A DNA stretch of 64,000 nucleotides from Myxococcales bacterium. GTDB lineage: Bacteria; Myxococcota_A; UBA9042; JABWCM01. A program made the position numbers and the translations under genes. Of the stretch, positions 9,375 through 63,860 are shown in pieces. How positions within the stretch are numbered: the first letter of the stretch is position 1; every line of letters starts with the position of its first letter. A model generated the notes under the pieces. It worked only from the letters and a program-made list of their open reading frames with translations. It had not been told where the DNA came from and ran no database searches. The stretch is from assembly GCA_013360285.1 (NCBI GenBank), contig JABWCM010000001.1:11328-75327 (forward strand), in the 5' to 3' direction.

Positions 9375-9950
9375 TGATGAAATAATTTATTTCGACCGTG
9401 AAATAATTTATTTCGACCGTGAAATAATTTATTTAGCATCAGAAATAATTTATTTAGCATCAGAAATAATTTATTTAGCATCAGAAATAATTTATAATTC
9501 TAAAAAATTATTTATTTATTGTATGAAACAAATTATTTCAATACATAAATAATTTATATTGAGTGTTAAAATATTTATTTTAATGTAAAATAATTATTCT
9601 GGCAATTGAAAAATATTATTTCATGTGCCAGATAAATTATTTTGAGTGTAACGAAAATTATATTTTGAAAAAATAAATTACTTTATGCACGAAATAATTT
9701 ATTTCACATTGAAGATAATTTATTTTATACACGAAATAAATTATTTAGATGAAAAATAAATAATATGATGATCGAAAATAATAATTTGAGATTAAGAATA
9801 AATGATTTTGAATATAAAATAATTTATTTTGATTTGTCAAAAATAATAATTTGTATGGAATAAATTATTTCGACCGTGAAATAAATTATTTCACATGCAA
9901 AAAAAATTATTTCGGTCGTGAAAAAAATTATTTTGAATCACGAATACAGT
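9375..9950. repeat. AT-rich array of ~27 degenerate direct repeats with ~21-bp period; core AAATAATTTATTT (near-palindromic) plus a variable 6-8-bp GC-containing tail
   Basis: Read directly: gaaataatttatttcgaccgt x2, gaaataatttatttagcatca x3, then more than 20 degenerate copies; terminal units again carry cgaccgt/cggtcgt tails. About 20% GC versus about 60% in the flanks. Confidence 0.9.
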
Positions 9951-25727: not shown

Positions 25728-27188
25728 GTGATGAAGAGAGCGCTTTGGGGTGTATTGTGGGTGCTGTTGTTGCCGGCGTCGGTCGCCTGGGCGGTACCGA
25801 ATGAAATAACCTATTCGGGAAGACTGGAGGCATCCAACGGCTTGCCCTATGATGGGGAAGTCGCGGCGATGGCTCATGTTTACGATACATTGTCCGGCGG
25901 TACGCCGTTGTTTAGCCAAGATATGGGCGACGTGATCGTGGAGTCGGGGTTGTTTCGAATCACGTTGTCGGGGGCGACGCTTCAAAGTGTCATTCAAACC
26001 CACGATAATTTGTGGATCGAGTTTGAATTGGATGGCGAAACGATGGCGCCGCGGCAACGGCTTACCAGCGTTCCGTATGCCTCCATTTCCGGGGACACAA
26101 AACGTGTGGGCGGTGTTTTGGCGGGTGAGTTTGTCAAAAAGAGTGATCCCATTACGGAAACGGCTCTTCCGACCAATTCTTTGGATCGGGTCTCAAACGG
26201 CGCGATGTCGAACGAGTTCAAAAACGTGACCGCGGCGTATGTGGGCACGTTCAAAAACATCATGGATGCTCCGGATCCGGCTGCGACGTTGACGTTTAAC
26301 ACCGCGGAAACCGGCGATAGTTATATTACTTCGTTGACGGTTTACACCCAGTATTCATTGACGTTTGGCAGCTTTATTCAGATGGTGCTGACCCCGCCTG
26401 CTTCGTCGGGATTGGGTGCCATTACTTTGGTCAACGATTCGGCCAAAATCAACCCCGGCAGTTATGCTCAATCGTGGACCCCGGGCAATACGCCGGCATT
26501 GACTGCGCTATTGGGGAAAAAGTTGTCGGGAGTCTGGACGTTGTCGATTATCGATACCACCGATGATGCCGCTCCGGGCACGTCGGTTGGTAAATTAGAG
26601 GGATTTTCGCTTAATTACGACGTGGTCCGCTCCGACCATATCGGTCTTTCCGGCAAACTGGACGTATCCGGTGATCTGACGGTTGGCGGCCACGGAACGT
26701 TTGGCGGCAACCTGGTCGTGGGTGGAAATCTGACAACCATGGGCACTGCCATGGCCAAACCCATCATGTTTGATGGCTGGTGTGTTTCCCATGGCGGCAG
26801 CGACGGTGTTTTGATTCCTTATTGCCTTGATGGAAAAGCGGGGGATCCGCCTGCGGGTTGGTTCAGCGTGGATGCCGCTTTGGGTGAAGTGACGGTATTA
26901 CAAAAGGGGTGGTACACCATTACTTGGTATACCTGGAATCGAAACAATTGTGGAACACGGCATGATGCGTATCTTCAGGTCAACGGAAACACGTTGAGAG
27001 GAAGCGAAACCCGGGTGCCGGCAAACCTGGAAAACATGGCCCGGCTTGAAGGTACATTGTTGCTCAACGCCAACGACAAAGTCCGGGTAATGGCCCGTTC
27101 CAATTGCAGTTCTACGGAGCCCCATCGCAGTTTTTACGCGGGGCCGACCTGGAGCCATTTCAACATCAAACACGCGGGAACCCCATAA
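25728..27188 (+). CDS. Secreted fibrous-protein family member A: signal peptide, conserved ~125-aa N-terminal domain, variable C-terminal region
   Basis: Signal peptide MMKRALWGVLWVLLLPASVAWA. N-domain VPNEITYSGRLEASNGLPYDGEV..PRQRLTSVPYA shared with 27771, 30899(-) and 59502. Begins 8 nt after the giant gene's stop. Confidence 0.8.
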   Translation: MMKRALWGVLWVLLLPASVAWAVPNEITYSGRLEASNGLPYDGEVAAMAHVYDTLSGGTPLFSQDMGDVIVESGLFRITLSGATLQSVIQTHDNLWIEFELDGETMAPRQRLTSVPYASISGDTKRVGGVLAGEFVKKSDPITETALPTNSLDRVSNGAMSNEFKNVTAAYVGTFKNIMDAPDPAATLTFNTAETGDSYITSLTVYTQYSLTFGSFIQMVLTPPASSGLGAITLVNDSAKINPGSYAQSWTPGNTPALTALLGKKLSGVWTLSIIDTTDDAAPGTSVGKLEGFSLNYDVVRSDHIGLSGKLDVSGDLTVGGHGTFGGNLVVGGNLTTMGTAMAKPIMFDGWCVSHGGSDGVLIPYCLDGKAGDPPAGWFSVDAALGEVTVLQKGWYTITWYTWNRNNCGTRHDAYLQVNGNTLRGSETRVPANLENMARLEGTLLLNANDKVRVMARSNCSSTEPHRSFYAGPTWSHFNIKHAGTP

Positions 27189-27770: not shown

Positions 27771-29228
27771 ATGAAACGATTCATGATGATTTGGGCGGCC
27801 ACGACGTGCGGGCTGCTGGCCATTTCTTCCGCTTTTGCGGTACCCATGACGGTAACTTATTCCGGGCGGCTTGAGGCACAAAACGGGATGCCGTATGACG
27901 GCGAAGTGGATGTGATAACAAGTTTATGGAACGCGGCTACGGGTGGAACGAATCTGCTGGAACAGGATTTTGGGACCATTGTAGTGGAAAGTGGTTTGCT
28001 GCGGATTGCACTCAATGATGCCGCTTTGTCCAACGTGATCAAAACGAATGATGACGTGTGGATTCAGTTTACGTTGGACGGAGAACCGATGATGCCGCGG
28101 CAGATGTTGACTTCGGTACCGTATGCCATCAAAGCCGATGACGCATTGTCTTTAGGTGGCGTGTTGGCGGGTAATTTTGTAAAAAAGACCGACAAAGTTG
28201 CCAACGCGGCGTTACCGACCAACGGTTTGGCCTGGGTTTCCAACGGCGGTATGTCGAACGAGTTTGCCGATGTGAAATCGAGCTGGACTGGGCCGGTACA
28301 AAACGTCACGGATTATCCTGGGTTGGGCGCGCAGGCGACGGTGACGGCTGCTGAAGGGTCCAACAGTTATATGACGGATCTCACGATTTACACCCAATTT
28401 ACGTTGACGTTGAACAGTTTTGTCGAAGTGATTTTGGTGCCGCCGGCGGGGACCGGTGTGGGTGCAATTACGGTATATAACAACGCAAGTGGTAAGTTAA
28501 ATGCGGGCATTTATGCCGACACCTGGACCCCGGGGAACCTCCCGGCGTTGGGCGCGTTGCTCACCAAAAACGTTGCCGGTACGTGGACGTTAACCATTAC
28601 CGATACCACCCAAGATGCGGCTCCCGGCACGGTGGTTGGAGTCTTGCAGAAATTTGACGTCGAATACGACGCGGTTCGGTCCAACCATATCAAGATCAAC
28701 GGTAAATTGGACGTGGCCGGAGATATTCAGGCGACCGGCATGGTCAAAGCGACTGGATTTCAGGGCGATGGTTCGTTGCTCAAAGGGATTACCCCGATTA
28801 TCGGGGTCACGGTATTTGAATCGGCGACTCGAAAGTCGCTTGGCGGTGCGGCGAGCATCGTCATGGAATCATTTACCGTCAACAAAAAATCTCCAACCAG
28901 CATTTTGTTGATCGAAGGCTCTATTTCCGGTCATACCAATGCCAGCGGATCGATGCAGCAAGGATGGAAATTGGGTTCCGGGACCGAAGTATTGGGTCAA
29001 GGACTCCAGTATACGGCGGACCCACATGCGAAAACCTTTCCCACGAGAGCGGTGATCACGGGTCATACCACCACCGGACCCCAAACGATGGTATTCCGAT
29101 ACTTCTGCCCCAACAACGATACCGGAAACCGCCCGTTTGCGATCTACAATCCGAACAGTTCCGACGATGGTCGTTTGGGCCAAACCCGGTCGATTTATAC
29201 CGTGTGGGAAATCGAACCCAATTTCTAA
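27771..29228 (+). CDS. Secreted fibrous-protein family member B (close paralogue of A over the full length)
   Basis: GAGGAG RBS. Signal peptide MKRFMMIWAATTCGLLAISSAFA. N-domain VPMTVTYSGRLEAQNGMPYDGEV..PRQMLTSVPYA. Confidence 0.8.
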   Translation: MKRFMMIWAATTCGLLAISSAFAVPMTVTYSGRLEAQNGMPYDGEVDVITSLWNAATGGTNLLEQDFGTIVVESGLLRIALNDAALSNVIKTNDDVWIQFTLDGEPMMPRQMLTSVPYAIKADDALSLGGVLAGNFVKKTDKVANAALPTNGLAWVSNGGMSNEFADVKSSWTGPVQNVTDYPGLGAQATVTAAEGSNSYMTDLTIYTQFTLTLNSFVEVILVPPAGTGVGAITVYNNASGKLNAGIYADTWTPGNLPALGALLTKNVAGTWTLTITDTTQDAAPGTVVGVLQKFDVEYDAVRSNHIKINGKLDVAGDIQATGMVKATGFQGDGSLLKGITPIIGVTVFESATRKSLGGAASIVMESFTVNKKSPTSILLIEGSISGHTNASGSMQQGWKLGSGTEVLGQGLQYTADPHAKTFPTRAVITGHTTTGPQTMVFRYFCPNNDTGNRPFAIYNPNSSDDGRLGQTRSIYTVWEIEPNF

Positions 29229-30898: not shown

Positions 30899-31979
30899 TT
30901 AGTCGATGTCGGTACAAACCAACTTGATGGCTTGAATACAATTTCCGGAAACAAACGAGAAGGTTCCCGTCGACCCGTCAAAACTCGTCAATCCACCCGA
31001 GCAACCTGCCGGTCCCGCTTGAATGTCGACAACATCGTGGAATTTGTGGGGATAGGAATCCGATCCGGTATAAAGATTGACGGCTGCCACAAACCTTCGC
31101 CCGGTCCAATGGGCTTCGTTGTTGGTGCGCAGCACGCAGTCATATACCCCGTGTGGAAGACCACCGATTCGAGCGTTATCAAAAATCGTCCGTAAACTAT
31201 AACTTCCGTCGGTTGACGTGTTCCAAATCGTGGTTTTCGGGTTGCCGCCCATGGGCCCCTGAGGTCCTTGCGGTCCCGTCGCTCCGGTGGCCCCAGTGAG
31301 TCCGGTTGGTCCGGTTGGTCCGGTTGGTCCGGTTGGCCCTGCCGGTCCCTGCGGCCCGGTCGCCCCAATCGGTCCTTGTGGTCCCGTCGCTCCGACTGCT
31401 CCCGTTGCTCCCGTTGCTCCCGCGGGTCCTGTAGGTCCGGCTGGTCCCTGCGGCCCGACCAGGCCGGAAGGAGATCCGACCCAGTTTCCGGACGCATCAA
31501 TCACCGCGATCTCGCCTACCTGGATCGCTCCAACGCTGATATTTCCGTTTGCGTCTTGTTGGACAAAACCATCGGGTCCAATCCCTCCAAGTTGATCACT
31601 ATTGCGCGCCAACACCGCAAAGGGTACCGACAACACTTGTTGTCGTGGCCCCAACACTTCGCCGGCAATGGTAAATTGCAGATACAGTTGGTCGGATGAC
31701 CACAGCGTGGTTTCCAGACCATCGGGGTCCACCGCACCCAGAACGACATCAAATCGTCCCTGGTTTACTTCCACCGTGCCGAGATTTTCACTCCAGGCGG
31801 CATTTCCGCCGGTTGGAACAACATATAGCTCCACTACAGCGCTGACGTTTCCGTCAAACGCCATGTTGTTGACGGTGCGTAATTCTCCAACATAAGACAA
31901 CGTGACCGGCGCTGCCGTTGCCGAGACCACCACCAAACAACTTCCCAACAAAATCAATGTTCGGATTAACCCGTTCATG
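30899..31979 (-). CDS. Secreted fibrous-protein family member C: conserved N-domain, about 30 collagen-like GXY triplets, unique C-terminal domain
   Basis: GGAAGGAG RBS before ATG 31979 (MNGLIRTL..; six-frame ORF extends to 32008). N-domain [65 protein letters not shown].. triplets. Lies directly downstream of the 3.3k-aa giant gene. Confidence 0.8.
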
Positions 31980-32106
31980 TTCCGGCTCCTTCCAAAGGGC
32001 ATCGCCACGGGCCAAGGTTGATCCTTTTCCCAAAAACGTTACGCCGTCTGTTCTGAACCTTACGGTACTTCCGTTGGGACCGGTGTGTCAATCGGCAACG
32101 ACGGGG

Positions 32107-54021: not shown

Positions 54022-54212
54022 ACAAACACCTTCCCGAGTACGACGAACAGGATTATTTCAACGACCAACACCCCGATAACGACTCCATAGATTTTTTTCC
54101 AACTGCCCAATATCGGCGGTTGTTCATTCAGGTCGGCACGGTGTTCGTGGTCACCTGTTGGTAAATTAGCGTTTGCCATAATGCACCACGTTGGAAAAGA
54201 GTCGGTAAGCAC
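54018..54212 (-). CDS. Small single-TM membrane protein; putative SSS-transporter small subunit (DUF4212-like)
   Basis: C-terminal TM helix KIYGVVIGVLVVEIILFVVLGKVFV, translationally coupled to the symporter gene. Start may be the internal Met at 54179 (MANANLPTG..). Confidence 0.5.
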   Translation of the reverse strand: MLTDSFPTWCIMANANLPTGDHEHRADLNEQPPILGSWKKIYGVVIGVLVVEIILFVVLGKVFV

Positions 54213-56658
54213 CGGGAACGCCCGCCGGCAACTGCCGGAAAAAAGCCAACCCGGTATAAATGATGTGGCCCTTTCCGTAGGGGGCCACCACTAGGCTTCC
54301 TTGCAGAGATTTTTCACCGGGATCGTTCATTTCCAAAACCGGAACAAATTCGGGCCCCCAACTTTCGGCAAAATAAAGACCCCGCTCCTGTACCCAGCCC
54401 TCGAAGTCCGCCGGGCCGATGGGATTGGGACCGCGCACAATCGGATGATTCGGATCTAAAAATGAGATCGGAGACCGTTCATCCGTAACCCGTTCTCGGC
54501 CGATATTCAGTGTAAACGGAGCGATGGGACAAATCAGGTCACTGCGAGGGGTCTTGGTATTGTATTGAACGACAAGCGTCCCACCTTTGTGAACAAACTC
54601 CAACAAATGGGGCTGCCAACTTTTGATTCGCGGCGTGGAGCTGTAAACCCGCACTCCCGTGATGATCGTATCGAAACGCGATAACGACGACCCCAAAATC
54701 TGTGCGTCACCTAGGGTTTCGACATCAAATCCCACCTGACGTAAACTATCTGCGACTTTGTCTCCGGGGCCTTCGATATAGCCGACACGCGCAGTTGGCT
54801 TTTTAAGATCGACGACACGGATCAATTGTTCTGCCGGCATGTGCAGGACCATCGGAGACAAATGTTTGTGGTCGATGGTCTGGCGTGAGCCCGAATAGGT
54901 CTTTCCCTGAAACTCAATGACTCCCGTAAGTTTGCCGGCGGTCAGGTCGGGAGCGGTTGCCGTAACCATCACTACCACACTTTGTTCTTCGCCGGCGGCG
55001 GTGATGTCAAAATCCATTGAAGGTGGTTTGATTTGCAACCCGTCCGGACCCGACAATCTGACCGTGCCTTTGGCGTTGGCGCTTGCGGCACGTAATCGCA
55101 GCCTTACGGGGGTGGGTATTTTATGCGGCACAGCGATTGCCGATTGTTCAAATGTGATGCTGACAGGCGGAGTGACCACAAACGGCCGCCGGCGTTCGCC
55201 ATCGACGGCATCGACCCACTTGTAAGATAACGGCAACTGCCATTCAAAGGGTTTCCCGCCGATATTCACCGAAAACGTGACCGGTAGCGGAATAGGACCG
55301 ATCGCATCGCCAATGGCGGACAGTTCGGTGACGGTGTGCTGATAAGGCGATGAGGGTTCTTTAAGCCAATAAGGTGTTGTCCAGGCCTCGGACTCTTTCA
55401 ATAGGAGCGACCCATTCAAAATCGCAGGTTTTTGTGGTGTAACCTCCATTTCGGAGGCCAATTCGGCTCCATCCGGAAGGGTCACCGAACGCAGTATCAC
55501 ATCGGCAAGAGCCCGCGCATACACTTCCACCCGGACCGGAACAGTTGAACCAGGGGAAGCTTCGTCTATGGTTGCATTGGCTTCCAGGTGTAATCCCGCC
55601 GCAGAAGCGACCAGGGTTTGGATGTCGCGGATTTTGCTGTCCCGCAGTGCACTTTTTGGCAAAGATTCCAAAACCGCAAGGATCTGGATCAACTTTGGAA
55701 TGACTCGATGAGGATGATGGATGTCCAATTCGGCGGCGGCTTCACCCACGAGTTGGGTCACCGATTCGCCACCCGCCTGCCTTTTCCAGGAAAAATCCAA
55801 ACCCGCAAATGGATCGCGGTGATTGGGATTGTCTTCTTTGGGATCCGAGCCGGCAAGATGGGTAAAATATTCGGCGACCGGTCCCCGTTCTTCCGCGGCG
55901 CCAAAACCTTGGCTTTTGTGCATCGACCGGCTTTTTCCGGCAACTTCGCCCATCAAAAGCCCCAACAGAGGATTATATTTTCCGACGTCTAATGTAAGAT
56001 AACCAGACGTGTCGCTTTCCGGAGTCAGATTCCAGTGAGACACATTGTGCAAAAGTCGTTTACTTTTCCATGGTGTGACCAACGCCAACTGCTCTGGATA
56101 GGCCTCCGGATCGGCCGCTTTGATAAATGCTTCCGCCGCCAAAACAGCCGAGGCCGTATGATGTCCATGGGTTGGGCGGCCCCCCGTTTCAAATCGGGTG
56201 ATGATCACATCCGGTTGAAATTTGCGGATCACCCACACCAAGTCGCCCAACACTTGCTCTTTACCCCACAATCGTAATGATTCTTCGGTGGTTTTGGAGT
56301 ATCCGAAGTCGATGGCGCGGGTAAAAAATTGCTCTGCACCGTCGAGTCTCCTGGCGGCCAACAACTCGTGGGTTCGAATGATACCCAGCAATTCCGCTTG
56401 TTCGGTGCCGATGAGATTTTGGCCGCCGTCTCCTCTGGTTAACGAAACATAAGCTGTTCTTAACTTCAGTTCATTGGCAAGATAAGATAACAGCCGAGTA
56501 TTTTCGTCGTCGGGATGCGCCGCCACGTATAGCACGCTTCCGGCAATAGCCAACTTATCGATTCCAAGGGCGATTTCCGACGCGGGTTTGGCCACGACCG
56601 CCGGAGCTATCCATATACCAGCCATAAATACCAACAACCATGTTCGAAAAACCATCAT
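54166..56658 (-). CDS. Secreted 830-aa multidomain protein with N-terminal PIG-L/LmbE-family (GlcNAc-type) deacetylase domain
   Basis: Signal peptide MMVFRTWLLVFMAGIWIAPAVVA. PIG-L motif VLYVAAHPDDENTRLLSYL..VSLTRGDGGQN and downstream HHTASAVLAAEAF. ~550 additional C-terminal residues of unknown function. Confidence 0.7.
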   Translation of the reverse strand: MMVFRTWLLVFMAGIWIAPAVVAKPASEIALGIDKLAIAGSVLYVAAHPDDENTRLLSYLANELKLRTAYVSLTRGDGGQNLIGTEQAELLGIIRTHELLAARRLDGAEQFFTRAIDFGYSKTTEESLRLWGKEQVLGDLVWVIRKFQPDVIITRFETGGRPTHGHHTASAVLAAEAFIKAADPEAYPEQLALVTPWKSKRLLHNVSHWNLTPESDTSGYLTLDVGKYNPLLGLLMGEVAGKSRSMHKSQGFGAAEERGPVAEYFTHLAGSDPKEDNPNHRDPFAGLDFSWKRQAGGESVTQLVGEAAAELDIHHPHRVIPKLIQILAVLESLPKSALRDSKIRDIQTLVASAAGLHLEANATIDEASPGSTVPVRVEVYARALADVILRSVTLPDGAELASEMEVTPQKPAILNGSLLLKESEAWTTPYWLKEPSSPYQHTVTELSAIGDAIGPIPLPVTFSVNIGGKPFEWQLPLSYKWVDAVDGERRRPFVVTPPVSITFEQSAIAVPHKIPTPVRLRLRAASANAKGTVRLSGPDGLQIKPPSMDFDITAAGEEQSVVVMVTATAPDLTAGKLTGVIEFQGKTYSGSRQTIDHKHLSPMVLHMPAEQLIRVVDLKKPTARVGYIEGPGDKVADSLRQVGFDVETLGDAQILGSSLSRFDTIITGVRVYSSTPRIKSWQPHLLEFVHKGGTLVVQYNTKTPRSDLICPIAPFTLNIGRERVTDERSPISFLDPNHPIVRGPNPIGPADFEGWVQERGLYFAESWGPEFVPVLEMNDPGEKSLQGSLVVAPYGKGHIIYTGLAFFRQLPAGVPGAYRLFSNVVHYGKR

Positions 56659-56868
56659 CGTAAACTGACTCCTTATCCGCCTAGCAGGTTAGTCCACAAA
56701 CTCAAAAGAGATGTGGGCGAGTTGTTTTCAACCAATCCTGGACCGATGTCCATCCCGGAATCGGTAGTGCGGCGAAATTTTTGTGCTAAAAACAGACATC
56801 TTGTGAAAAGGCGGGGGCAACGTGATAGGTATTGGGGGTAATCAAGCGGGGGCATAACGTTAAATGAG

Positions 56869-58512
56869 ATGGGTGTGTTCTTGATGAAAGACCGGAAAGT
56901 TCGACATTTTGCCGCGGATTATTGTAACAACGATACCCGTGTTGAAGGCATATTTCCTCACCATTTTCTCGATGAACGTTCGATCGCACATCGGTTGCAG
57001 ATTGCGGCGACGAAAACAAGTTGTGCCGCCGTAGTGGCAACTTTGCGTGACGCCACACCAAATCCTTCGGAAACCACGCGGCGCCATTTGGAGTGGCTTG
57101 AGCAAGGAAATACGGTCGCCGTAGTGGCTGGGCAACAGGTCGGATTGTTTTTGGGACCCGCGTTTGCGTTTTATAAAGCTGCCGGCGTGATTCGCACAGC
57201 ACAGCAGATTCACAAACAGTTTGGAGTGCGTGCGGTGCCGATCTTCTGGCTTCAAAACGAAGATCACGACATCGAAGAAATCCGGTCGGCTACCATTCCG
57301 ACTCGCGACGGTCTGGTCGTAACGTCGTTGTCGGCCTCCACTCACCGTCCAAAAACGTCGATTCGTGACGAACTTCTGGGGCCGGAGATCACCAGTGCAC
57401 TCGGCACGGTTGCCGAAGCGTTGGCGGGTCGGGCAAAAGCCGCCGAAGTGATGGATTGGTTGGGGCGTCACTATCGTCCTGATGCCACCTACAGCGAAGC
57501 TTTTGCCGGCGCGCTGGGTGAATGGTTTGCCGACGAAGGGTTGTTGTTTGTGGATGCACGGCATCCCCAGTTTGCTGCGGCATCGCGGGATTTGATGAAA
57601 CAAGCTTTGGTACAAACCGAAACCATTTCCGCCGCGTTGGCCGAACAAAATGAACGATTGATGTCATTAGGTTACTCACCAACGGTTTATGTACGACCCC
57701 GGTCTCCGTTGCTGTTTGTGCATCCCGACGGTGCGAATGGGCCGAGGTATCGCCTCGAAGCCAACGACAATGACGCCTACACCGTGGTCGGTTATCCCGA
57801 ACATCGAACCATGACAACAGGGCAATTGGAGGCCTTAATCGATGCTGATCCACGTGCGGTATCGACTTCGGCTTTGTTGCGGCCAGTGATTCAAGATTCC
57901 TTGCTGCCGACGGCCGTGATGTTGGGGGGGCCATCGGAGTTGGCGTATCTGGCACAATGTGTTCCGCTGTATTCGTTGTTCCGCCAAACGTTGCCGGTGA
58001 TATGTCCACGGCCCAGTTTTTGTATTTTGCTGCCACGTACATGGTCCTTGATGCGTCGAATTGGGTTGGACTCCATCGATTTATCACTGCCGTGGGATCA
58101 ACTGGTCGCCCGACATTTGGCACAAACGGAGGGGGGGATTCCGACGCCCGACGTGGTTTCCGAACTGTTGACGACGTCGCTTGGAGACGTCATTCAACAA
58201 TTGCATTTGGCCAGTGTGCCGATGGGGTCGATGATGGAATCAGCGCTCAGAAAAACCGAGAATACGTTGAATTTTGCTGTGCGCCGCTTCGGTGAGCATT
58301 ATCGGAAAACCTATTTCATTCGCGACAAAGAAAGTGCCGAACGTTGGGCCAAATTAAAAGCGGAAATCCGCCCCGGCAACATTCCCCAGGAACGGGTGGT
58401 CAGCGTTGTGGCCTATGCTGCGGCGGTGGGGATGAACACGTTTAAACACAAAGTACTGGAGCATACGGTGCCGTTTACCTATGGAACGAAGGAGATTTTG
58501 TGGCAAACCTGA
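56869..58512 (+). CDS. bshC: Bacillithiol biosynthesis cysteine-adding enzyme BshC
   Basis: AVVAGQQVGLFLGPAFAFYKAAGVIRTAQQIHKQFGVRAVPIFWLQNEDHDIEEI parallels B. subtilis BshC (AVVGGQQAGLLTGPLYTIHKI..VPVIPIFWVAGEDHDLDEI). Also LRPVIQDSLLPTAVMLGGPSELAYL versus [25 protein letters not shown]. 547 aa. Confidence 0.85.
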   Translation: MGVFLMKDRKVRHFAADYCNNDTRVEGIFPHHFLDERSIAHRLQIAATKTSCAAVVATLRDATPNPSETTRRHLEWLEQGNTVAVVAGQQVGLFLGPAFAFYKAAGVIRTAQQIHKQFGVRAVPIFWLQNEDHDIEEIRSATIPTRDGLVVTSLSASTHRPKTSIRDELLGPEITSALGTVAEALAGRAKAAEVMDWLGRHYRPDATYSEAFAGALGEWFADEGLLFVDARHPQFAAASRDLMKQALVQTETISAALAEQNERLMSLGYSPTVYVRPRSPLLFVHPDGANGPRYRLEANDNDAYTVVGYPEHRTMTTGQLEALIDADPRAVSTSALLRPVIQDSLLPTAVMLGGPSELAYLAQCVPLYSLFRQTLPVICPRPSFCILLPRTWSLMRRIGLDSIDLSLPWDQLVARHLAQTEGGIPTPDVVSELLTTSLGDVIQQLHLASVPMGSMMESALRKTENTLNFAVRRFGEHYRKTYFIRDKESAERWAKLKAEIRPGNIPQERVVSVVAYAAAVGMNTFKHKVLEHTVPFTYGTKEILWQT

Positions 58513-59384
58513 CCGAACTTTCGACAGAAACACTGGACCTAGTGGCTTTTGGTCCTCATCCCGATGATGTGGAGCTGTTTTGTGGGGGGGTGATGCTGGC
58601 GATGGCCGACCGCGGATATCGTACGGGGATTGTCGACCTAACATGGGGTGAAAGGGCGTCTCAAGGTACGAAAGAGACCCGTATTGGCGAATGTGAATTG
58701 GCGAGCGGGTTGATGAAACTCCACTGTCGCACCAATTTGGAACTGCCGGATACGTTATTGCCGCCATTGGCCTGGGCAGTGGGTGCGTATGGGGGAGAAA
58801 ACCTGTCGAAGCCTACCGATGCCGGTTGTTTTCCGACTGGGATACCTCAAGAGGTTGAAGCCGCACTGGCAAAACTCGTCACGGTCATTCGCGGACTGAG
58901 GCCCCGTGTTGTGGTGATTCCACCCAGCAAAGAGCGGCATCCCGATCATGTGGCGGCACATTATTTGATCACCCAGGCGTTATTTTATGCTCAGCTTCGG
59001 AATTTCCCTCATGCCGAGTCCCTACCGCCGTTTCAACCGGACCAGATGTTGGTATATCCCATGCGAGTCGAACTCACACCATCGTTTATAGTCGATACAT
59101 CCCACGTGGTGGAGCGTAAACGTGAGTTGGTTCACTGTTATCGCAGCCAGGTGACCAGGCAGGTGACCGATGGGTCAAATACGGAAATTTCCGGAACACT
59201 ATTGAGTTCTTCGTTGGCCATGTCGGTATTGGAAACCCGCGACAAAATGGCAGGCGCCAGAATCGGAACCGCCGCCGGAGAGCCTTATATCAGCGTCAAC
59301 ACCTTGGGCTTAATCGATCCCCTTGATCATTTTCGCAGAAATCCATTCCATCGCCCCCATCTTTTTGCCGCCGTCGAATTCTAA
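58500..59384 (+). CDS. bshB1: Bacillithiol biosynthesis deacetylase BshB1 (PIG-L/LmbE family)
   Basis: LVAFGPHPDDVELFCGGVMLAMADRGYRTGIVDLTWGE matches BshB1 N-terminal metal-binding HxDD motif region. 13-nt overlap with bshC. Confidence 0.8.
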   Translation: MANLTELSTETLDLVAFGPHPDDVELFCGGVMLAMADRGYRTGIVDLTWGERASQGTKETRIGECELASGLMKLHCRTNLELPDTLLPPLAWAVGAYGGENLSKPTDAGCFPTGIPQEVEAALAKLVTVIRGLRPRVVVIPPSKERHPDHVAAHYLITQALFYAQLRNFPHAESLPPFQPDQMLVYPMRVELTPSFIVDTSHVVERKRELVHCYRSQVTRQVTDGSNTEISGTLLSSSLAMSVLETRDKMAGARIGTAAGEPYISVNTLGLIDPLDHFRRNPFHRPHLFAAVEF

Positions 59385-59501: not shown

Positions 59502-60941
59502 ATGGACACAAAACGACGAATGTTGGCTGTGGTTATCATTGGGTTGTTGCTGTTTTCATCGATGGCCGCGGCAGTACCTATGGAAGTGGGATATGTTGCG
59601 GAATTGCGGTCTCCAAATGGATTGCCGTTTAGCGGCACCATGGACGTGACGGTGGCATTGTATCCCGATGCGATGTCGGGGGTGCCCAATTGGGGACCTC
59701 ATACCTTTGATGACCTGGATATCGAAGGCGGAAGGCTGGAGTTTGTGTTGGGGCAGGGGGGATCGGCTCCAGTGGACTCAATGGACCTATCGACAACAGA
59801 GTTGTGGCTTGAAATTCAAGTCGGTGATGATGTGCTGACACCGCGGCAGAAAATCGTAGCCGTGCCATATACGGTGTTGGCCTCCGATGCCGAAAGATTA
59901 GGTGGGTTGGACGCAGCGGAATATTTGATTCCATCTGATCTGCCGGGTTTGGGGGTCTTGTTTTCGACATCGGTGGCGCAGGTGGCATTTAGCGGAGCCT
60001 ACGGGGATTTGACCGGAAAACCTGCGTTGGCAACGGTTGCAACCAGCGGGAATTATAATGATCTGTCCAACAAACCGGCGTTGGCAACGGTTGCAACCAG
60101 CGGGAATTATAATGATCTGTCCAACAAACCGGCGTTGGCAGCCGTTGCAACCAGTGGGAATTATAACGATCTGTCCAACAAGCCGGACTTGAGCCAATAT
60201 CTGACGACATCGGGTTCGCCGGCAGCAACTTCGATTGCCACGACCACGCTGAACCTACCGAAAAGCGGCAGTACGGTAAGTTTTGGTTATTGCGGCGGTT
60301 TGCCCACGGGCTGGTCGGGATCGACAGGCGGCTCCACCGATGGTTTCTGCATGAAAAACGGCACACCTGGCGGAGACGCCGAGACGTTGTTTTTGATGAG
60401 TTACGACAATGGCGATACCAACGAGAGTGTATACATCGGCGGCGGGGCGATGTGTTGTGGCCCCAGTTGGCAAGGATTTCGTATATTTGGCAACGGCACC
60501 GCGTTGTTGTCGGGGAGTTTGTCGACAAATCAGGGCGCGTTGTTCAGCGATATGGCGGAAAACGTGCCGGTGGTGGAAAAAGTCGAACCAGGTGATGTGG
60601 TCCGAATCGAACGGGTCGATCAAAAAAACTTCAACAATTCAAGATTTTCCAAAACAACCAGGGCTTACGACAAAACAGCGTTTGGGGTGGTTTCCGACAC
60701 GTTTGGATTGGCCATGGGACCCACACAAAATCGGTCGCCGGTGGCGTTGGCGGGTATCGTCAAAGTGAAAGTAGATCCACGCCAGGGCAAAATTGAACCC
60801 GGAGACCTGCTGACAAGCTCACCTACTCCAGGCCATGCGATGAAGGCAACACAAGACATACCGGGAACAGTGTTTGGAAAAGCAATGGAAGGTGCCGAAG
60901 GGAATCCGCAAGTGATTTTGATGCTCGTGATGCATCGATAA
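59502..60941 (+). CDS. Secreted fibrous-protein family member D: conserved N-domain followed by three tandem phage-tail-fibre-type repeats (SGNYNDLSNKPALATVAT) and a distinct C-terminal domain
   Basis: Signal peptide MLAVVIIGLLLFSSMAAA. N-domain VPMEVGYVAELRSPNGLPFSGTM..PRQKIVAVPYT. DNA-level 54-bp tandem repeat x3 at about 60040-60200 encoding YNDLSNKP-type repeats. Confidence 0.8.
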   Translation: MDTKRRMLAVVIIGLLLFSSMAAAVPMEVGYVAELRSPNGLPFSGTMDVTVALYPDAMSGVPNWGPHTFDDLDIEGGRLEFVLGQGGSAPVDSMDLSTTELWLEIQVGDDVLTPRQKIVAVPYTVLASDAERLGGLDAAEYLIPSDLPGLGVLFSTSVAQVAFSGAYGDLTGKPALATVATSGNYNDLSNKPALATVATSGNYNDLSNKPALAAVATSGNYNDLSNKPDLSQYLTTSGSPAATSIATTTLNLPKSGSTVSFGYCGGLPTGWSGSTGGSTDGFCMKNGTPGGDAETLFLMSYDNGDTNESVYIGGGAMCCGPSWQGFRIFGNGTALLSGSLSTNQGALFSDMAENVPVVEKVEPGDVVRIERVDQKNFNNSRFSKTTRAYDKTAFGVVSDTFGLAMGPTQNRSPVALAGIVKVKVDPRQGKIEPGDLLTSSPTPGHAMKATQDIPGTVFGKAMEGAEGNPQVILMLVMHR

Positions 60942-60944
60942 AGA

Positions 60945-61580
60945 CTAATCCGGGCTGAGGATGGCACGAATCAGTTTGTCATCACCGGGGCGGATTGTAA
61001 GCAATGCCGCCTCGGTTTTGTCGATCAACTCCTGGACTTTGGGAATCATCTGGCGGCCCTTCAAGATATGTAACTCCACCGCACTGGCGGCAGCACTTCG
61101 TGCTTTGCCGGCATCTCTTAATTCATTGTTGGTGGCTTCAAAAGCGGCAATGGAAACGACGAGTCCGGGATGGTTCAATACCTTGGCTCGTTCGATCAAC
61201 GAATCGCCGAACTTGGTTGCTTCGTCGGGGCCCAACTTTCGTGCATCGGCTGCCTTCGTGGTTCCAAACAAAGACCGGTAAGGATCTTGGTCGGCCTTTT
61301 TGCCGGAAACGTGATAGGATTCGGACGAAACGACACCGACGTCTTCGTCCCAGTATACATCGGTGATTTTCACACCGGCTCGTTCCTGATTGAGGGTTCG
61401 GCGTAACTGACGTCGTTCATCCAGATAGGTCGTAAACTCTATTTCCATTTGTTCCCAGGGTGGAATCAGGGGAAGGATATCGGGAATCCGTTTGGAGGCT
61501 TTGATGAGATTTGCGGTGACATTGCCGCAATATTCGTCCAGTGCATCAACGCCTAAATTGGCTGGAAGTGTATAACCCAT
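60945..61580 (-). CDS. Hypothetical protein (211 aa), unknown function
   Basis: Uninterrupted ORF with balanced composition and charged helical segments. Convergent with the 59502 gene (3-nt spacing). Confidence 0.45.
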   Translation of the reverse strand: MGYTLPANLGVDALDEYCGNVTANLIKASKRIPDILPLIPPWEQMEIEFTTYLDERRQLRRTLNQERAGVKITDVYWDEDVGVVSSESYHVSGKKADQDPYRSLFGTTKAADARKLGPDEATKFGDSLIERAKVLNHPGLVVSIAAFEATNNELRDAGKARSAAASAVELHILKGRQMIPKVQELIDKTEAALLTIRPGDDKLIRAILSPD

Positions 61581-61734
61581 GTGATGTCTCCTTATTGTGT
61601 ATCATCGCTGTAACTGATGATGATGCCACGTTACCATAGTTAATCGGGCGACCAAACCTTTTTCATGTGCCCGTCAGAAAAAAAGAGAAAGCGGTTTCTT
61701 TACCATGCCTACAAAATGGCAACTTCGACCGAGA

Positions 61735-61952
61735 AATCGAACGGCAGCCTATGCCCTAAGCTTTCCGACAAGTCGGAACGGTTAGGGCAGCCTATGCCCT
61801 AAGCCTTAAGACAAGTCGGAACGGTTAGGGCAGCCTATGCCCTAAGCTTTCCGACAAGTCGGAACGGTTAGGGCAGCCTATGCCCTAAGCTTTACGGCAA
61901 GCCGGAACGGTTAGGGCAGCCTATGCCCTAAGCTTTCCGACAAGTCGAAACC
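61735..61952. repeat. Tandem array of five 43-bp direct repeats (plus one truncated copy); each contains an 8-bp-stem hairpin TTAGGGCA-gccta-TGCCCTAA
   Basis: Read directly: cggaacggttagggcagcctatgccctaagctttccgacaagt at 61774, 61817, 61860, 61903 with point variants, partial copies at both ends. No spacers between units. Confidence 0.85.
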
Positions 61953-62061: not shown

Positions 62062-62814
62062 ATGCAATATACAAGTCTGTACTGTCTAAAATCGGGAATT
62101 GTGGACATCATGTTGAAATATCCACAATGGGGAGTCCGAAAAGTGTGGGCACTGCTAAGGCAGCCGGCATACGGAATGCGGGTGAGCACCAGAAGGGTAT
62201 GGAAGTTGATGCGGGATCTGAGACAGGCTTTTCGTAATGATAACTCGGAGTCAAACCAAGCATCGAAAAGAGTAGTGGTCGACGATTCGAACCAACGGTG
62301 GGCGACCGACTTTACGAAAGTGTGGACCAAAGAAGATGGCCAGGTAACGATTGTCCCAACCATCGATTGTGGATGCAGAACATTGATGGCCGTGGAAGTA
62401 GTCAAAAGCCAAACGTCCGAATCGATTTTGGCGTCGGTAGATGCCGCATTGAAAAAAGAATTTGGCGATACAACCAACTTAAGACAGGCACTGGAACTGA
62501 GAACCGACCAAGGATCGCAGTATGTAAGCCAAACCTGTAAAGATTGGGCAGAAAAATGGAACCTGAACCATACGTTGGCAAAAAAAGGCACACCAACCGA
62601 AAATGCTGTAGTGGAACGTGTGATAAGAACCATGAAAGAAGAATGTATCTGGCCCAGAGACTGGAACAATGTCGAGGAGCTAAGGCAAGCACTCAACAAA
62701 TGGCATCAGGAATACAATGAAATACGTCCACATCAGGCACTTAATTGGAGCACCCCGAAACAACGCCGGGAAGAAAACCTGGCCAGAGCGCAAGGAGGGC
62801 ACAAAAAGATTTAA
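62062..62814 (+). mobile_element. IS3-family OrfB-type DDE transposase/integrase catalytic core (rve) without an orfA; probable IS remnant
   Basis: HTH_21-like N-terminus (..GVRKVWALLRQPAYGMRVSTRRVWKLMRDL), DDE residues in WATDFT, RTDQGSQY, TPTENAVVERV. Only ~110 bp upstream, too short for an OrfA. No terminal inverted repeats identified. Confidence 0.7.
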
Positions 62815-62860: not shown

Positions 62861-63810
62861 AGGCATGCGTTTCCTCATCGGCTAAAGTAGGCGTTAATCA
62901 ACTGCGACGTCCCCGGCAGTTGCGGTTGGCATGCGTTTCCTCATCGGCTAAAGTCCCAGCGCCACCGGAGTGCCTACCATGCAGTTGCGGTTGGCATGCG
63001 TTTCCTCATCGGCTAAAGTTCAAGGCCAACTGCACGGCAGCCTGGAAGAGTTGCGGTTGGCATGCGTTTCCTCATCGGCTAAAGTTAGACTAGGCGACAT
63101 TCGATCCGAACACTCGTTGCGGTTGGCATGCGTTTCCTCATCGGCTAAAGTTGCAACGACGCTGGATGCGACACCGGATTTGTTGCGGTTGGCATGCGTT
63201 TCCTCATCGGCTAAAGTGGATCAGCATTCGGGTTGCCGCGGCCATCAGTTGCGGTTGGCATGCGTTTCCTCATCGGCTAAAGTTGATGTGCGGCGTTCCC
63301 GCCACCCAAATCAGTTGCGGTTGGCATGCGTTTCCTCATCGGCTAAAGTACACCATTCAGGCGTGAACTCGATCCCCTTGTTGCGGTTGGCATGCGTTTC
63401 CTCATCGGCTAAAGTCGTGTTACGGTGGTGCGGCCTACGCCCTGCGTTGCGGTTGGCATGCGTTTCCTCATCGGCTAAAGTCTTGCCCCTGGCCGTCCGT
63501 CGGCTCTTCGGTTGCGGTTGGCATGCGTTTCCTCATCGGCTAAAGTTTTCGTGGCCGTCGAATGGTCACGGGCCGTGTTGCGGTTGGCATGCGTTTCCTC
63601 ATCGGCTAAAGTATGACCACGCTCCGTAGGTGGCAGACCGAGGTTGCGGTTGGCATGCGTTTCCTCATCGGCTAAAGTACACTATCGCTTTTCGGCTTCA
63701 ACCGCGCGGTTGCGGTTGGCATGCGTTTCCTCATCGGCTAAAGTATGGAAGCACGGAACCCCAGTGTTCCAGCAGTTGCGGTTGGCATGCGTTTCCTCAT
63801 CGGCTAAAGT
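62861..63810. CRISPR. CRISPR array: 14 full 36-bp repeats GTTGCGGTTGGCATGCGTTTCCTCATCGGCTAAAGT plus one 5'-truncated/degenerate repeat at the IS-proximal end; 14 unique 29-30-bp spacers; no cas genes in the window
   Basis: Exact repeat copies at about 66-bp period from 62919 to 63810. Spacers are unique and about 60% GC. The degenerate copy at 62861-62888 suggests the trailer end faces the transposase. AT-rich leader-like sequence lies at 63861-64000. Confidence 0.92.
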
Positions 63811-63814
63811 CCAT

Positions 63815-63860
63815 GTCCCAGAACTTGTGAGAATAACACGGGTTCTGGGACATTTTTTTT
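63815..63860 (+). terminator. Hairpin (GTCCCAGAAC .. GTTCTGGGAC, 10-bp stem) followed by a T8 run immediately after the last CRISPR repeat; candidate intrinsic terminator or leader-proximal structure
   Basis: Inverted repeat and T-tract read directly at 63815-63860. Confidence 0.4.

Follow-up and report, generated by a model that had tools for sequence, protein, structure and literature searches.

The DNA analysed here is a stretch of 64,000 nucleotides, referred to below as the window, and the feature under study is a tandem array at positions 61743-61951. On one side of the array lies a minus-strand gene (60945-61580), called as an ORF for a 211-aa orphan protein (P0001), whose start faces the array at a distance of 162 bp. 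The array-to-gene spacer (61581-61722, minus strand) carries a strong Shine-Dalgarno sequence, AAGGAG, and a small hairpin just upstream of it. On the other side, 110 bp separate the end of the array from the ATG (62062) of an ORF encoding a DDE transposase, beyond which a CRISPR array begins.

The initial annotation, made from the sequence alone, had described the array as five 43-bp hairpin-forming repeats, and this description was confirmed. Tandem Repeats Finder reported a period of 43 with 4.9 copies, 92% matches, 0 indels and a score of 369, and repeat search and unit alignment also delineated the array, with five copies all in exact 43-bp register. In the register that keeps the hairpin intact, the units start at 61737, 61780, 61823, 61866 and 61909, show a mean column identity of 94% and abut without spacers. 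The inverted repeat with an 8-bp stem and a 5-nt loop, also claimed earlier, corresponds to the 21-mer TTAGGGCAGCCTATGCCCTAA, which was present in four exact copies (at 61782, 61825, 61868 and 61911) where the chance expectation is zero matches, and in a fifth copy at 61739 that is left-truncated with 3 mismatches. In unit 2 this hairpin 1, TTAGGGCA-GCCTA-TGCCCTAA, spans 61782-61802, the helix 1 cells being 92.5% paired; identical copies span 61825-61845, 61868-61888 and 61911-61931, and the truncated copy 61739-61759.

The claimed hairpin was present, but one hairpin per unit proved an incomplete account, as each unit contains a second one, TTCCGAC-AA-GTCGGAA, which was overlooked in the first reading. 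Hairpin 2 has this form in unit 1 (61763-61778); the copy at 61806-61821 has two unpaired positions, another copy lies at 61849-61864, the copy at 61892-61907 has one A-T to G-C compensatory pair together with one mismatch, and the copy at 61935-61950 has a G-to-A change, the resulting G.U pair being available on the minus strand only. The two hairpins of a unit are linked, so that the unit is made of two inverted 18-nt half-sites: TGCCCTAAGCTTTCCGAC is followed after 2 nt by its inverted copy and then, after 5 nt, by the next direct copy. The window array holds nine such half-sites, on alternating strands and with gaps of 2 and 5 nt, and has two symmetry centres per unit and two nearly identical strands. 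Within units 2-5 all substitutions fall within or directly beside hairpin 2, and unit 1 differs additionally at its left margin, where it has lost the left arm of hairpin 1. The array edge nearest the gene (61723-61742) was found to be degenerate on reading the sequence, with CTTCGACCGAGAAATCGAAC resembling hairpin 2 and the first hairpin 1 lacking its left arm. Short-read contigs from several metagenomes that enter the array from the side of the 211-aa gene or of the transposase end inside it, and a shorter gene-side contig (L002) ends before reaching it. Since contigs from several metagenomes reach the array from both sides, the same junctions are present in several samples.

Folding of the array, suggested as a check in the initial annotation, showed that it folds far better than shuffled sequences on both strands (z = -8.9 on the plus strand and -4.9 on the minus strand), and that the strand antisense to the gene folds better than the sense strand. 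Only one compensatory pair was detected within the window array, and it was not significant, as 97 of 500 shuffles equalled it; variation among the five near-identical units is too low for covariation to be informative.

The unit and its hairpin core were also searched for elsewhere, as had been proposed, and the array was found nowhere else, neither in the window nor in the representative genomes or the metagenome, viral, plasmid and phage collections covered. No second copy of the unit, the half-site or the hairpins was present in the 64-kb window with up to 3 mismatches, and a pattern with 20 specified bases gave 0 matches in 185,579 representative genomes (GTDB). JGI metagenomes yielded one chance match only, in eukaryote-like sequence with telomere-type repeats; IMG/VR yielded only ten unrelated single hairpins; and the array was unmatched among plasmids and phages by blastn. 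The whole window gave 0 matches at Rfam gathering thresholds, and at relaxed thresholds only sub-threshold matches, mostly to microRNA-precursor hairpin models. Local alignment of the unit with the adjacent 36-nt CRISPR repeat scored 11, equal to the shuffle mean, on both strands. The earlier view that this is not a CRISPR array was thus borne out: units abut at 43 bp without spacers, are 92% identical over their full length and bear no similarity to the 36-nt repeat, which rules out that identity. The view that it is not a typical REP/BIME stood in so far as a dispersed REP family is contradicted by zero further copies in the 64-kb window and the collections searched, but its argument from abutting units was weak because the alternating orientation of the half-sites matches the layout of BIMEs. 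Among the ORFs scanned near the array, the adjoining gene did not encode a Y1 transposase. We regard the array as genuine and not a product of chance, and no curated family matches it.

The neighbouring ORF (62062-62814) is the remnant of an IS3-family transposase (orfB). It matches only positions 135-368 of the 369 in NF033516, so orfA and the left IS end are missing and the junction is a deletion scar. No pair of terminal inverted repeats bridging the two sides of the remnant was found, its DNA had no match among plasmids, and its protein matches were at no more than 35% identity. The transposase ORF is flanked by one and the same pair of repeats in each of six metagenome contigs, suggesting that a single copy is fixed here. 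At its right end the IS runs directly into a 5'-truncated CRISPR repeat of 27 nt (62862-62888), after which 14 perfect 36-nt repeats continue to 63810. Every CRISPR repeat in 62862-63853 carries a promoter-like pair, TTGGCA-17-TAAAGT, resembling the repeat-embedded promoters of type II-C systems, and a terminator with a 17-bp stem and a subsequent T run closes the CRISPR array (63813-63853). The window is continued beyond 64000 by contig L005, from another sample, with cas2, cas1 and a 1028-aa cas9, all on the minus strand; these genes and a tracrRNA anti-repeat occupy 1110-5534 of that contig, the anti-repeat (5509-5534, 25/26 matching) lying upstream of cas9. The CRISPR array appears on this short-read contig in collapsed form, with two repeats. 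With the cas genes and the anti-repeat in place, the type II-C system has all its parts even when the 43-bp array is left out; the latter sits at the cas-distal end of the CRISPR array, beyond the IS and ~900 bp away.

On the other side, the sequence of the 211-aa protein equals that of HUU55_00220, from a MAG that bears the label Myxococcales bacterium. The minus strand of the spacer contains a weak AU-rich 5-bp hairpin (61686-61699) followed by a U7 run (61678-61684); the two are absent from the minimum-energy fold, and a terminator scan found no site there. No promoter could be assigned by scan to the array or the gene, and no GG-N10-GC match, as expected of a sigma-54 promoter with enhancer sites, was seen by eye. 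Antisense pairing of the array with the gene mRNA, of type I or VIII-like kind, was considered and rejected, none being found above shuffles.

An exhaustive HMMER search placed the 211-aa protein in a family of about 120 clusters, in which its closest relative, and the sole close one, is P0002 (44% identity) from other metagenomes. Protein-pattern scans of representative genomes and IMG/VR found no relatives, and none of 56 members matched any family in Pfam, NCBIfam, PADLOC or PHROGs. AlphaFold2 run on the 56-sequence alignment predicted, with a pLDDT of 97.3, an all-alpha bundle of elongated shape, in which residues 33-91 and 138-176 are helical; a model of the 211-aa protein built from two sequences was poor. 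Foldseek against PDB and BFVD returned generic helical bundles only, all with E > 0.09, and a PDB profile search with the 211-aa protein returned nothing. The family is mildly acidic (median pI 6.0). Two groups of residues are conserved: P100, Y101, F105 and G117, in a loop located at one tip of the bundle, and P198 and G199, which make up a C-terminal PG motif extended as ...DDLVRAIL in most members; no catalytic-looking residue is invariant across the family. A HEPN-like R-x5-H motif was seen in the closest three proteins and discarded, as it is not conserved across the family. Judged from the predicted structure, the 211-aa protein belongs to an uncharacterised all-helical family without a known fold match.

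The surroundings of the gene hold further features of their own. Fibre-like or collagen-like paralogues sharing an N-terminal domain were found in the window at 59502-60941, 25728-27188, 27771-29228 and 30899-32008, and at 1-1257 of the P0002 locus (L021), and a member of this fibre-like family adjoins the gene in both the window and L021. One paralogue contains a 54-bp x 3.1 coding repeat (60018-60186) and shows a weak match to the N domain of a Bdellovibrio mosaic adhesive trimer fibre. Bacillithiol biosynthesis genes occupy 54166-59384, namely bshC, a PIG-L deacetylase (probably bshB) and a second large PIG-L-like protein. The GC content of the contig is 53%, and both this low GC and the bacillithiol pathway are unusual for the label Myxococcales.

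We examined 11 distinct loci of the protein family, and in 7 of them an array with a period of 43 or 44 lies directly beside the gene, either upstream (window, L021, L026, L030) or downstream (L025, L033, L035). Five of the arrays have ~4.4-6 units, and one consists of two units only, at a contig end. Besides the window array (P0001; 43 bp x 4.9, 162 bp upstream), the P0002 locus (L021) carries 43 bp x 5 units 84 bp upstream of the start, with a conserved 26-27-nt core, CGCCCCA-N4-TGGGCGACCGTGGATC, variable remainders and no indels, in a sequence wholly unlike the window unit. At the P0003 locus (L026) two units 43 bp apart, identical at 27/43 positions, stand at the contig end 352 bp upstream of the gene. 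A degenerate array upstream of P0008 (L030-32) repeats TCACGCC every 43 bp, lag 43 being the best of 85 lags. Directly after the stop codon of P0005 (L033) there is a lag-43 array, the cassette lying between trkH and trkA; 44 bp x 4.4 units begin 41 bp after the stop of P0123 (L025) and precede a BREX system; and 43 bp x 4.9 units (65% identity) fill the 256-bp gap between the stop of P0007 and the start of cas3 (L035/36), leaving flanks of only 21 bp and 19 bp in this intercistronic position. At the latter locus the family gene, the array and a solitary cas3 (HD + helicase, 884 aa) follow one another in that order (L035, 3001-6598), and no further cas genes occur within 3 kb on either side. 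No 43/44-bp array was found at the loci of P0122 (L024), P0121 (L027), P0004 (L028/29) and P0006 (L034), the last two being on contigs of at most 1.1 kb. The two P0004 contigs (~1.1 kb, whole contigs) come from two metagenomes that also hold window-locus contigs; in them P0004 (249 aa) lies between ~29-nt inverted repeats, TCCGTCCCC(G/A)TATTTTTTCACAAACTCAG, at both contig ends, and they could be an invertible or mobile segment. Four family loci have defence systems beside them: type II-C CRISPR-Cas, cas3, BREX and Qat. There is no IS near the six non-window arrays.

For control purposes, the window and eight loci (121 kb in total) were scanned in 606 segments of 400 bp each; at a cut-off of 0.58 identity, periods of 43, 44, 86 or 88 were found at these arrays only. 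The remaining periodicities came from coding repeats, whose periods are multiples of three, from the CRISPR array, from a 21-bp array rich in AT and from the 26-bp arrays of L024. The AT-rich array (9379-9933 of the window, in the 8811-9937 intergenic gap) has ~26 tandem 21-bp units at a GC of ~42%, each made of a 13-nt palindrome, AAATAATTTATTT, and 7-8 variable bases; it lies between convergent genes, by a small minus-strand ORF (~8900-9195), and looks like a centromere, an iteron or a nucleoid-protein loading region. The L024 arrays (1143-2561 and 5098-5540) are very long, with 26-bp and 21-bp units in up to ~41 copies, and adjoin an IS91 transposase, the family gene P0122 and the Qat defence system; gene calls over them are probably spurious. 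Unit consensuses of the 43/44-bp arrays from different loci showed no detectable similarity to one another. Conservation among these arrays extends to the period, the copy number (~five) and the position next to the gene, but not to the sequence.

Folding was compared across six of the arrays. On the gene-sense strand all six folded better than shuffles (z from -2.6 to -8.4), and the antisense strand gave inconsistent values, from +0.3 to -8.9. The variable parts of the units keep a propensity to form hairpins (z = -3.9 in L021 and -1.9 in L035). In L035 the G.U pairs closing the conserved stem are available on the sense strand only, and assignment of a strand from G.U pairs relies on single cases that contradict each other.

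The architecture is, by comparison with published loci, closest to type III toxin-antitoxin (TA) loci and to sopC-type centromeres. Published criteria for type III TA loci describe a tandem array upstream of a gene, with occasional long gaps and one downstream case, and in ToxI 5.5 units of 36 nt precede the protein gene (PMC3401426). Like ToxIN, CptIN and TenpIN, the loci described here pair a short direct-repeat array with a gene for a protein of ~170-210 aa; the repeat sequence co-varies with the protein family, and the modules are small and occur in varied contexts including defence islands (PMC3401426). The array likewise stands beside the gene, in type III systems usually upstream and in the window 162 bp upstream. 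On this comparison the layout would agree with the published type III TA locus criteria except for the terminator, as no clear one is present here between array and gene. The loci differ further in that the protein is an acidic, predicted all-alpha bundle and not a ToxN/CptN/TenpN endoribonuclease, that the units are mostly simple hairpins and not pseudoknot-forming sequence, and that several family members have no array. In sopC of the F plasmid, 12 direct repeats of 43 bp each contain a 16-bp inverted repeat (PMC3177203). The present arrays share with it head-to-tail repeats of exactly 43 bp, each with an inverted repeat, beside the gene of the presumed partner (PMC3177203), but have ~5 units instead of 12, a chromosomal setting, no sopA/sopB (ParA/ParB) and an adjacent protein without a DNA-binding fold; no par genes were found among the window neighbours (fibre-like protein, bshB, bshC, IS remnant, CRISPR array) or at the related loci. 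The cassette lacks one defining trait of each class, namely the toxin fold of type III TA and the par genes of sopC.

Two other kinds of repeats were compared as well. As in BIMEs and REPINs, the window array consists of intergenic palindromic units in alternating orientation with two alternating short linkers, but only one locus carries it in the 64-kb window and none in the collections searched, the association is with one gene family and not with a RAYT transposase, and the half-sites are not themselves palindromes. CRISPR arrays also have regularly spaced palindromic repeats, and in L035 and L021 a conserved hairpin alternates with 16-24 variable nt. In contrast to CRISPR arrays, spacers are missing from the window array, the variable segments in its relatives have arisen by divergence from one another and not by acquisition, the conserved hairpin of 17-21 nt is below any CRISPR repeat length, and cas genes are not consistently linked.

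Because relatives of the 211-aa gene found in other bacteria carry their own, unrelated 43-base arrays, we assign the window array to this gene and not to the IS or the CRISPR array. The array and the gene for the helical-bundle protein very probably constitute a conserved two-part cassette. Against this stand the 4 of 11 loci without a 43-bp array, two of which are on contigs of at most 1.1 kb. The explanation that we favour overall, tentatively and with somewhat less than even confidence, is a cassette in which array RNA is the cognate partner or regulator of the protein. The array would act as a single-stranded nucleic acid, most likely an RNA of ~215 nt read in the same direction as the gene. 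It would form ~five modules, in each of which a GC-rich hairpin of conserved sequence stands beside a more variable one, and this RNA may be the cognate partner or regulator of the 211-aa protein. The suggestion in the initial annotation of a small structured RNA with reiterated stem-loops survives here, although its partner would be the gene at the opposite end of the array, which that annotation had not considered.

That the array functions as RNA is itself a plausible proposition with the balance tilted slightly against it. Consistent with it are gene-sense folding in all six tested arrays, the hairpin propensity of the variable parts, the G.U pairs and the type III-like layout. The L035 array, being intercistronic, must be transcribed if both flanking genes share a transcript. 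The scattered contexts of the cassettes (CRISPR-Cas, cas3, BREX, Qat and once trkH/trkA) are typical of small addiction or defence modules. Several observations count against an RNA or type III reading: the protein has no ToxN-like, other nuclease or nucleic-acid-binding fold, and its family is acidic; no convincing terminator lies between array and gene and no promoter is assignable; the antisense strand folds better in the window, where the one compensatory pair is not significant; and an exact period with a short conserved motif, as in L030, suits phased DNA sites at least equally. A narrower identity as an antitoxin-like or protein-binding repeat RNA is unlikely. It is likewise doubtful, though conceivable, that the family and its 43-nt, ~five-unit arrays represent an unrecognised protein/repeat-RNA class. 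Such a system, unrelated to ToxIN, CRISPR and TIGR-type systems, would pair a protein of new fold specifically with a multivalent structured RNA and would be a new kind of toxin-antitoxin, abortive-infection or other defence-island module.

Proximity to the transposase had led to the initial proposal of an IS-associated structure, namely an insertion target or the degraded end of a composite IS; a CRISPR feature (leader, tracrRNA or decoy repeats) was considered alongside it. The array does lie 110 bp from the transposase ORF and ~900 bp from the CRISPR array, the IS has its right end in a repeat too, namely a CRISPR repeat, and some IS3-family elements (IS1397, ISKpn1) target palindromic BIME units, which counts for an insertion target. 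However, the remnant has lost its left end and orfA, leaving a deletion scar as the junction, and no inverted repeat connects the two sides; its right end cuts a CRISPR repeat, and 0 of the 6 equivalent arrays beside homologues of the 211-aa protein is near an IS. As for a CRISPR feature, the unit is unlike the CRISPR repeat on either strand, the tracrRNA anti-repeat is located upstream of cas9, and the array is cas-distal and beyond the IS. This idea is already largely refuted and hardly credible; a later rearrangement placed the IS remnant and the CRISPR array (type II-C) next to the 43-bp array, and their proximity is incidental. A neutral recent tandem duplication without function would agree with units that are 92% identical, suggestive of recent amplification or homogenisation, and with the non-significant covariation within the array, but is very unlikely given that homologues of the gene at six other loci have arrays of this period and of similar copy number beside them, in unrelated sequences with differing decay, and that this period is absent elsewhere in 121 kb.

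A serious rival, to which we nonetheless give a low probability, is that the array provides phased binding sites on double-stranded DNA (as a centromere, iteron or operator would), its dyad-symmetric units standing four helical turns apart so that a dimeric protein would load co-operatively over ~215 bp, as SopB does on sopC of the F plasmid. The architecture is that of sopC, with its 12 direct repeats of 43 bp each holding a 16-bp inverted repeat (PMC3177203), and the period stays exact despite diverging linkers, the conserved part being a core of 26-27 nt in L021 and only TCACGCC every 43 bp in L030. The near strand symmetry of the window array with its alternating 18-nt half-sites, the lack of a consistent strand bias in the fold z-scores of several loci, and the occurrence of arrays on either side of the gene, as for centromeres, point the same way. 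However, no ParA, ParB or helix-turn-helix gene is conserved beside the arrays, the sole conserved neighbour being an acidic helical bundle without a DNA-binding fold; the site sequences are wholly different between loci, so a co-evolving binder would need to be encoded nearby; the loci are chromosomal, in diverse contexts, and not plasmid-borne; and the L035 array fills an intercistronic gap. We also regard as improbable a protein-independent stack of hairpins acting in cis, which would insulate the gene from read-through or guard an mRNA end from exonucleases, its period going back to an ancestral array that unequal crossing-over had kept homogeneous. REP/BIME elements in E. coli protect mRNA ends from exonucleases, and hairpins are the only feature common to all the arrays, whose unit sequences differ. 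The transcript-flanking position of the arrays, 5' or 3' of the gene, and the BIME-type alternating orientation in the window would suit such a role, as would a protein whose predicted structure gives no sign of nucleic-acid binding. Elements of the REP/BIME type are, however, dispersed and not bound to one gene family, whereas nothing is dispersed here; the period and ~five copies are kept across proteins 25-45% identical, beyond the needs of simple stabilisers; and the arrays have no U-tracts and hence are not classical terminators. The structured-RNA reading is ranked above phased DNA sites and protein-independent hairpins, without strong conviction.

The new finding is an uncharacterised helical-bundle protein family associated with adjacent arrays of ~five hairpin units at a period of 43-44 nt. 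A practical lesson from this locus is that a repeat adjoining an IS and a CRISPR array may belong to neither. Several members of the family are placed beside CRISPR-Cas, cas3, BREX or Qat, which makes a role in defence or addiction directly testable. Modules of such a form (ToxIN, CRISPR, sopC) each revealed a distinct mode of nucleic-acid recognition by proteins. If the link between gene and array is functional, this would be a new family of ~120 protein clusters, absent from Pfam, Rfam, PADLOC and PHROGs, in which each cluster has a co-evolving repeat partner of strictly limited length (~five units of 43-44 nt).
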